Shown: positions 13,165 through 13,863, numbered from the stretch's first letter. The stretch is 32,000 nucleotides of DNA from Candidatus Heimdallarchaeota archaeon (GCA_030149205.1 JASBSB010000001.1:630001-662000); one strand, 5' to 3'. Notes: generated from the letters alone by a model not told the origin. Translations and numbers: made by a program.

Positions 13165-13863
13165 ATGAGCAAAAAGAGCTCGAAGAAGGACAAGGCAATG
13201 GAAGATTTTGCCTCAAAGCTCTTGGGTATTGAGAAGAAAGACGAGGAGGAGAAAATGGAGATCCTGAAAGATGGAATACACAAGAGGGAATCTGAGCTAA
13301 AGGAAATCAAACATTCCAAGAGTCTAAACCAAAAAGTTGCTAAGATAAGAGAAGATGCAGGTATGTCAAGGTTTGTTGGGACAAAGGAGAAAATTAAATC
13401 CCCAAGGATTAAAAGGAAACAATTTATTGAAGAATTGGCAAGAGAGGTATTAGATGTGGGTTTACATGAATTAAGTGACTCTGGGTATGTAACTACACAA
13501 TTAGCTTTTGCAAAGTTATTTTCAGAAATAAGGCCTAATTGGAAGCTTAAGAAAAATGATATCAAAGAGGCAATCCAGCTCCTAGAAGAGAATAATATCA
13601 TTCCAAAGACATTACCCCTGAAATCTGACGTAATTATTAGATTTAAAGCCACTGAACTTTCGGATGATGTACAAAAGGTCTTGATCACTTGCGACAAGAT
13701 TGATGTGATAGAATTTAATGAATTGGTATCATTGTTAGGATGGATTCCCGAGAGGGTGAAATTTTCAATTGAAGAGCTTGAAAAATTGAATTTAATCTCC
13801 ACTGAGGGGGATGAACTCTTCTTTTTTGGAAACAGAACAGAACCTAAAACTGAAGAATTTTAA
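13165..13863 (+). CDS. ESCRT-II Vps22/Vps36 (EAP30)-like tandem winged-helix protein
   Basis: QFIEELAREVLDVG...DIKEAIQLL...ELSDDVQKVL...ELVSLLGWIPERVKFSIEELEKLNLI aligns by eye, end to end, with SNF8/Vps22 as recalled (DFYYELGVQIIEVC...DLIRAIKKL...ELNMDHTVVL...EIKASLKWETERARQVLEHLLKEGLA). Confidence 0.72.
   Translation: MSKKSSKKDKAMEDFASKLLGIEKKDEEEKMEILKDGIHKRESELKEIKHSKSLNQKVAKIREDAGMSRFVGTKEKIKSPRIKRKQFIEELAREVLDVGLHELSDSGYVTTQLAFAKLFSEIRPNWKLKKNDIKEAIQLLEENNIIPKTLPLKSDVIIRFKATELSDDVQKVLITCDKIDVIEFNELVSLLGWIPERVKFSIEELEKLNLISTEGDELFFFGNRTEPKTEEF

Follow-up and report, generated by a model that had tools for sequence, protein, structure and literature searches.

The locus described here raises the question of what an EAP30/Vps22-type gene does when it stands apart from the other ESCRT genes of an archaeal genome. 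The gene, here called P, lies within a 32,000-nucleotide stretch of DNA from a Candidatus Heimdallarchaeota archaeon (the window; contig C4, positions 630001 to 662000), in a genome of 3.3 Mb in 12 contigs. The initial annotation of the window described P as a stand-alone Vps22/36-like gene outside the canonical ubiquitin-ESCRT locus, read an ESCRT-I-like hairpin in the membrane protein encoded downstream, and suggested that the two genes form a second, membrane-tethered ESCRT-I/II module. Heimdall-group lineages are usually placed nearest to eukaryotes. In a published account, Asgard genomes carry only one Vps22/36-like gene and lack Vps36; Vps22 homodimers substitute for the missing Vps36, which arose during eukaryogenesis (Hatano et al. 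2022, PMC9192718).

To place P in a protein family, its product was compared with domain models, profiles and structures. The Pfam EAP30 model (PF04157) matched the protein with 27.0 bits, just over the cutoff of 26.8 (E = 4.3e-6), in an alignment of residues 12 to 209 to model positions 17 to 213 of 219 (197 positions covered). On its own the single-sequence score is marginal, and other members of the P clade scored 25 to 56 bits; once relatives are included the similarity lies far over chance. Searches with the lone protein found nothing in the PDB by phmmer, gave no match in NCBIfam, and recovered only P itself from a word index of homologs. A profile of 20 orthologs (alignment A1), when run against the PDB, matched human SNF8/Vps22 (E = 2e-11), yeast Vps22 (E = 2e-8) and human VPS36 (E = 0.02), and no significant family other than ESCRT-II chains was returned. 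Comparison of A1 with an alignment of canonical Heimdall Vps22 proteins (A3) by hhalign gave a probability of 99.9% and an E value of 5e-34 over 235 columns, and P aligned with the canonical EAP30 gene of the same genome at 27% identity (E = 5e-15). An antisense open reading frame overlapping P was rejected as a gene because it is nested in a conserved coding sequence and its sole matches are the antisense frames of P orthologs.

Table 1. Coordinates of P, its predicted parts and the flanking features, numbered from the first nucleotide of the window
Feature	Coordinates	Strand	Basis or remark
P coding sequence (divergent EAP30/Vps22 family paralog)	13165..13863	+	232 aa; Pfam, ortholog profile, hhalign, orthologs in 41/41 genomes
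P N-terminal region (basic, helical; two long helices), residues 4-64	13174..13356	+	AF2 helices 4-47 and 52-64, pLDDT 51-71
P winged-helix domain 1, residues ~84-160	13414..13644	+	AF2 pLDDT 84-93; aligned to Vps22/Vps36 WH1
P winged-helix domain 2, residues ~165-220	13657..13824	+	AF2 model; contains E214 (13804-13806)
Antisense shadow ORF	13086..13802	-	238 aa, S/L-rich; inside conserved + strand CDS
Beta-CASP metallo-beta-lactamase RNase without KH domains, aCPSF-like	11636..13018	-	Pfam Beta-Casp, Lactamase_B_6, RMMBL
Intergenic spacer, beta-CASP gene to P	13019..13164		146 bp; divergent arrangement kept in relatives
Membrane protein, codirectional with P	13947..15011	+	84 bp from P; alignment A4
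Ribose-5-phosphate isomerase A (RpiA)	15015..15689	+	Pfam Rib_5-P_isom_A, E 7e-37

Structure prediction pointed the same way as the profiles. The AF2 model of P (pLDDT of 77 overall and 80 to 93 in the core) consists of N-terminal helices followed by two winged helices. The helices align with the N-terminal helices of SNF8 and would correspond to the helical domain through which Vps22 and Vps36 associate. The initial annotation was open to challenge if the best structural matches proved to be unrelated tandem winged-helix proteins; instead, the top five Foldseek matches were Vps22 (3CUQ_A, 2ZME_A and 1U5T_A) and then Vps36 (2ZME_B and 3CUQ_B). Structural alignment with VIA-align gave a Z score of 10.1 over 167 residues for 2ZME_A, and single winged-helix proteins reached a similar Z over 60 residues, such that the score fails to separate ESCRT-II chains from single winged-helix regulators; the fold evidence is therefore the whole-chain ranking by Foldseek, together with the sequence profiles. 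A feature search of the ESM Atlas ranked archaeal EAP30 clusters first and placed eukaryotic Vps36 at 0.77, a result that cannot tell Vps22 from Vps36. We conclude that P is, by sequence match and architecture, a genuine, fast-evolving member of the EAP30/Vps22 family (PF04157; asCOG cog.002769) and that, as first proposed, the EAP30 pattern extends along its whole length.

The canonical ESCRT locus of the same genome is on another contig, C8, in the order UEV/Vps23, Vps28, EAP30 (100 bits), Vps4, Vps25, Snf7 and Snf7. Whole-genome family searches returned one Vps25, the two Snf7 genes of the C8 locus, one ESCRT-III/Vps4 set and two EAP30 genes, namely P and the canonical copy. A third EAP30 match, on contig C2, scored 19.5 bits, contained five in-frame stops and was dismissed as noise. 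Within the window there was no Vps25, Snf7, Vps4, Vps28 or ubiquitin-system gene, and the remaining genes are housekeeping and metabolic. We conclude that EAP30 is the only gene of the canonical locus that is duplicated in this genome and that the second copy stands alone, as had been claimed.

Some of the other window genes carry features of their own. Two open reading frames at 30309-31503(-), overlapping by 17 nucleotides, encode a 2OG-Fe(II) oxygenase domain and an Ofd1_CTDD domain, respectively, and would jointly make up an OGFOD1/Tpa1/Ofd1-like prolyl hydroxylase, either as a split or frameshifted gene or as two genes. At 9623-11632(+) there is an EutA-like ATPase (PF06277, E = 8e-136) with an extra N-terminal region of about 200 residues that has no confident family; a BRO1-like match to this protein (E = 0.019) is weak and probably due to chance. 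Open reading frames of 375, 241 and 500 residues at 18567-19694(-), 24068-24793(-) and 26876-28378(-), respectively, have no Pfam family.

A gene outside its usual locus could have been moved there by a simple rearrangement, in which case the rest of an ESCRT operon might lie next to P in relatives. No ESCRT gene was found beside P in approximately 70 ortholog loci, whereas at almost all loci with flanking sequence the canonical copy adjoins Vps28/Vps23 and/or Vps25/Vps4. Thus, P lacks the genomic association with ESCRT genes that is typical of canonical Asgard Vps22, and because this holds across the approximately 70 loci, we regard P as an old stand-alone paralog rather than as the product of a recent rearrangement.

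The most conserved neighbor of P is the divergently oriented beta-CASP gene, the product of which scored 320 bits, under the cutoff, against the catalytic part of the NCBIfam aCPSF1 model. With families designated f, a beta-CASP gene adjoins P in 25 of 26 f2 loci, all five f7 loci, the one f3 locus and 6 of 10 f1 loci, and it is missing in f4, f5, f6, f9 and f21 and in three other genomes of the window's genus. A Udp-type phosphorylase also recurs near P, and where the beta-CASP gene is missing, the reading frames upstream of P encode Udp-type phosphorylases or unannotated proteins and nothing related to ESCRT. Hodarchaeales genomes have a run of two thermosome genes, a gene for an Rpb6-domain protein, a P-like copy, S17e and KaiC-like genes; in two such loci (L062:3328-4672 and L064:3328-4669), the P-like copy is directly 3′ of the gene for the Rpb6-domain protein, which has 168 residues, and 5′ of S17e. 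The surroundings of P do not form an operon with a known partner.

One way to read these surroundings is that P has left the ESCRT system and become a neofunctionalized tandem winged-helix protein of RNA processing or transcription, acting, for example, with the beta-CASP RNase. We consider this unlikely. The divergent beta-CASP neighbor has been kept while other neighbors change, the Hodarchaeales copy sits between an Rpb6-domain gene and S17e, and P combines accelerated evolution with the lack of ESCRT linkage in the loci examined. Moreover, the lower Foldseek ranks contain the winged-helix arrays of SelB, the tandem winged helices of Rpc5, and Stn1 and TFIIIC, and such a role would echo the nuclear "EAP" (ELL-associated) role reported for eukaryotic ESCRT-II, the link of which to transcription is summarized in PMC539351. 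The argument is, however, one from gene neighborhood throughout, in which the beta-CASP pair is divergent rather than operonic and is missing from the families and same-genus genomes listed above. The best matches in sequence and structure are instead to ESCRT-II over the full length, N-terminal helices included, and the acidic residue at a Vps25-contact position, considered below, is conserved.

On the other side of P, the membrane protein has an N-terminal transmembrane helix, a hairpin (residues 75 to 125), an acidic linker, proline-rich repeats and a C-terminal helix with an acidic tail. Comparison by hhalign of the hairpin with the steadiness-box end of Heimdall UEV-Vps23 gave a probability of 85% and an E value of 6e-6 over 51 columns. 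The membrane-protein family compared with the N terminus of Vps28 gave an E value of 0.022 (probability, 2%), other controls for the hairpin gave E values of 0.13 to 0.45, and the Pfam Vps23_core model did not match the protein. Because the match contrasts with four control comparisons at E values of 0.02 to 0.45, a steadiness-box-like hairpin is plausible, and this part of the initial annotation gained support. The last 25 residues of the protein are nearly invariant across the order; their amphipathic helix has L-K-K at its end, and the acidic tail comes next. No Pfam model matches this C-terminal region, which by eye resembles either proline-rich/WH2-like/acidic actin regulators or an MIT-interacting helix.

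Although the membrane-protein family spans the order, it adjoins P in only 2 of 13 genera, represented by four genomes of one (g1) and one genome of the other (g5). Outside those genera the membrane-protein gene is on other contigs, and at most loci with readable flanks, including those of different families, it is followed by RpiA. RpiA is thus the recurrent partner of the membrane-protein gene and not of P (loci L092 to L094, L099, L101 and L102), and in most genera a KH-domain ATPase gene comes after RpiA; the homolog of that gene in the window is at 5853-7277, 8 kb away. Because the membrane-protein gene is elsewhere found on other contigs and paired with RpiA and the KH-domain ATPase gene, its juxtaposition with P looks like a local rearrangement and not a conserved module. 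The pairing of a putative ESCRT/cytoskeleton adaptor gene with a pentose-phosphate enzyme gene is odd but stable. Adjoining RpiA in the window is a gene for a small Ras/Roc/Arf-like GTPase of 283 residues with an N-terminal extension (15872-16723, +), an arrangement conserved in two further genomes of the same genus (L092 and L093).

The membrane-tethered module proposed at the outset, of which P would be the ESCRT-II part and in which the hairpin of the transmembrane protein would replace or recruit ESCRT-I, fared worse than the hairpin itself, and we consider it improbable. The resemblance of the hairpin to Vps23 argues for such a module, as do two codirectional genes separated by a short gap and a protein family that is found order-wide with a nearly invariant C-terminal helix. 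Against it, the adjacency is confined to the two genera above, the genome has no second Vps25 or Vps28 and no Snf7 (ESCRT-III) gene beyond those on C8, and the N terminus of P had no steadiness-box similarity by hhalign.

To estimate how old P is, its distribution was determined and trees were built. Orthologs with 31 to 44% identity were present in all 41 genomes of the order, and the canonical copy was also present in all but a few incomplete genomes. Scores with the A1 profile were 184 to 360 bits for P orthologs (families f1 to f4 of the order and f7 of a second order) and 83 to 122 bits for canonical copies, and P shares 23 to 31% identity with the canonical copies. In the order and in f7 each P ortholog has an intact reading frame and occurs alongside a canonical copy, and every Heimdall-group family sampled has one of each. 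Within A1, 24 columns are invariant at 32 to 42% identity. This conservation of orthologs and of invariant columns implies function.

Maximum likelihood trees (LG+C20+F+G4 PMSF) were built from Asgard sequences, without eukaryotic ones; a profile search with the canonical Vps22 alignment had returned Asgard proteins only. The trees split the P clade from the canonical side with support of 100/99 and 100/100. The P clade contains the copies of f1, f2, f4 and f7 and, on long branches, the second copies of Hodarchaeales (f5), f6, f9 and f21; the whole of this set of lineages also makes up, among the canonical copies, the Heimdall-group subclade. The second copies found elsewhere among Asgard archaea (Zn-ribbon forms of Sifarchaeia, f18 and f19) fell on the canonical side. 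An approximately unbiased (AU) test rejected the origin of the Hodarchaeales and f6 second copies from their own canonical genes (P = 6e-7); placement of the P clade next to the canonical copies of the Heimdall group, as their sister, was not rejected (P = 0.074). Taken together, the trees and the AU tests thus indicate a duplication of EAP30 that is no younger than the Heimdall group, with long-branch attraction as a live caveat, and a P clade that predates the radiation of that group.

P also evolves faster than its canonical counterpart. Within f1, P proteins share 38 to 44% identity versus 58 to 71% for canonical copies, and the P clade evolves approximately twice as fast. No member of its own subclade has a longer terminal branch than the window copy (1.1 to 1.2; median, 0.33), in which the conserved proline of a C-terminal F-P-G motif, common to the P clade and the canonical copies, has been lost. 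Together with the marginal Pfam score, the long branch and the degenerate motif are what might be expected if P, as a redundant duplicate of Vps22, had no specific role and were decaying. We consider that explanation highly improbable, as reading frames are intact and columns conserved in more than 80 genomes from at least 8 families, the clade is older than the radiation of the group, and the winged-helix core is predicted to fold with high confidence.

The reading that we prefer, with a probability of roughly 45%, is that P is a second ESCRT-II stalk subunit that is Vps36-like in role. P would then still act as an ESCRT-II-type scaffold, in which its N-terminal helices and first winged helix bind a second EAP30-type subunit, for which canonical Vps22 is the most plausible candidate, to give a heteromeric stalk like that of Vps22 and Vps36. 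The second winged helix of P would dock Vps25, which in turn would nucleate ESCRT-III. The resulting archaeal ESCRT-II gene set, two EAP30 paralogs and one Vps25, would equal the eukaryotic one. The simplest model for a genome with this gene content is a stalk of Vps22 and P that carries Vps25.

One prediction of the stalk model concerns the contact with Vps25. In yeast, Asp214 of Vps22 and Asp548 of Vps36 form salt bridges with Arg83 of Vps25 (PMC539351). The HMM alignment of P ends on yeast D214 (human D225), and the corresponding column holds D or E in 19 of 20 P-clade proteins, the residue in the window copy being E214. The acidic residue in the second winged helix is thus a predicted Vps25 contact, and we count it, together with the F-P-G motif common to P-clade and canonical proteins, as support for an ESCRT-II role. 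Prediction of a complex between canonical Vps22 and P gave a median score of 0.27, under the mark of 0.32, and counts neither way. Canonical Vps22 of HeimAB125 homodimerizes in vitro (Hatano et al. 2022), and therefore a partner for canonical Vps22 is not strictly required. Also counted against a stalk subunit are the separation of P from ESCRT genes, its fast evolution, the long branch and lost proline of the window copy, and recurrent neighbors with roles in information processing or metabolism.

Both the gene family and the fact that it stands alone have been catalogued before. Makarova et al. (2024) note broadly that the number of ESCRT-II paralogs varies, and in Supplementary file 9 of that study the AB_125 ortholog of P (contig 26, 15630..16373) appears as a stand-alone "cog.002769 EAP30/Vps22 family protein" adjoining an arCOG00541 YSH1-type beta-CASP gene and Udp. 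Because that ortholog has been tabulated in this way, the novelty of the present observation is modest. In the literature searched, we found no description of P as a separate, group-wide, ancient clade, of its synteny with the beta-CASP gene, or of its bearing on the origin of Vps36. ESCRT inventories can miss P because it sits at the Pfam threshold and is a "hypothetical protein" in NCBI records, as was the case for those named records that were inspected.

The presence of two ancient EAP30 paralogs in every sampled Heimdall-group family departs from the single-gene account, and one Vps25 with two EAP30 genes (the Vps25 count applying to this genome at least) is the eukaryotic gene set. One could go further and propose that the split between Vps22 and Vps36 predates eukaryogenesis, that P is the archaeal ortholog or sister of Vps36, that the Heimdall group builds an ESCRT-II of one Vps22, one P and two Vps25 subunits, and that Vps36 later gained its GLUE domain and zinc fingers. 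Such an early split would fit both the finding of Hatano et al. (2022) that Vps22, rather than Vps36, is the closer relative of the canonical Asgard protein and the branching of the P clade outside all canonical Asgard Vps22 in the maximum likelihood trees. We nevertheless hold the proposal to be doubtful, as long-branch attraction is possible and a duplication on the Heimdall stem was not rejected (AU P = 0.07). Where eukaryotes branch with respect to Heimdallarchaeia is also disputed (PMC12222021). What the P clade does is make two questions testable: whether a heteromeric ESCRT-II existed before eukaryotes and what the source of Vps36 was. Had P instead moved to RNA processing, eukaryotic ESCRT-II with its nuclear EAP activity would have an archaeal parallel.

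Among known EAP30 systems, the other Asgard paralogs are also stand-alone: Zn-ribbon-EAP30 proteins of Sifarchaeia, forms of 330 to 390 residues in Hodarchaeales and Sifarchaeia, and the copies of f18 and f19. EAP30 paralogy is therefore common in Asgard archaea. In the tree these paralogs group with the canonical copies, and they have additional modules at the N terminus, whereas the P clade has no added domain and is found in the Heimdall group only. Two of them, L065:3524-4525 (Hodarchaeales, G047) and L105:2953-4113 (Sifarchaeia, G100), are third EAP30 paralogs of 333 to 386 residues that group together in the tree (99/93). Both have an N-terminal extension of about 170 residues, with no Pfam match, ahead of the two winged helices, and they could be forms with a Vps36-like extra N-terminal module. 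Closer to P is canonical Asgard Vps22 (cog.002769; e.g., HeimAB125_14050 of Hatano et al. 2022), which has the same length, architecture and F-P-G motif. P differs from it in forming a separate clade, in evolving faster, in lying at the Pfam threshold, and in its position outside the Vps23-Vps28-Vps22-Vps25-Vps4-Snf7 locus.

Eukaryotic Vps22/SNF8/EAP30 (2ZME_A, 3CUQ_A and 1U5T_A) is the best match of P in both profile and fold. The helical domain and both winged helices are included in the alignment, which places an acidic residue at the yeast D214 position, but identity in structural alignments is only 14 to 19%, and the match of the P ortholog profile to SNF8 scores 47 bits versus 121 bits for that of the canonical Heimdall family. 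By profile score, which is not phylogeny, the P clade is also nearer to Vps22 (47 bits) than to VPS36 (17.7 bits). Vps36/EAP45 (3CUQ_B and 2ZME_B) carries a GLUE/split-PH domain and NZF zinc fingers, whereas the 232-residue P has neither, with no PF11605, PH or zinc-finger match; an exhaustive search gave no fused form that was clearly P-type, the one match of 555 residues scoring better with the canonical profile. In other respects Vps36 parallels P: it is the second-ranked structural match of P and, like P, a second and more divergent EAP30 subunit found with Vps22 and a single Vps25.
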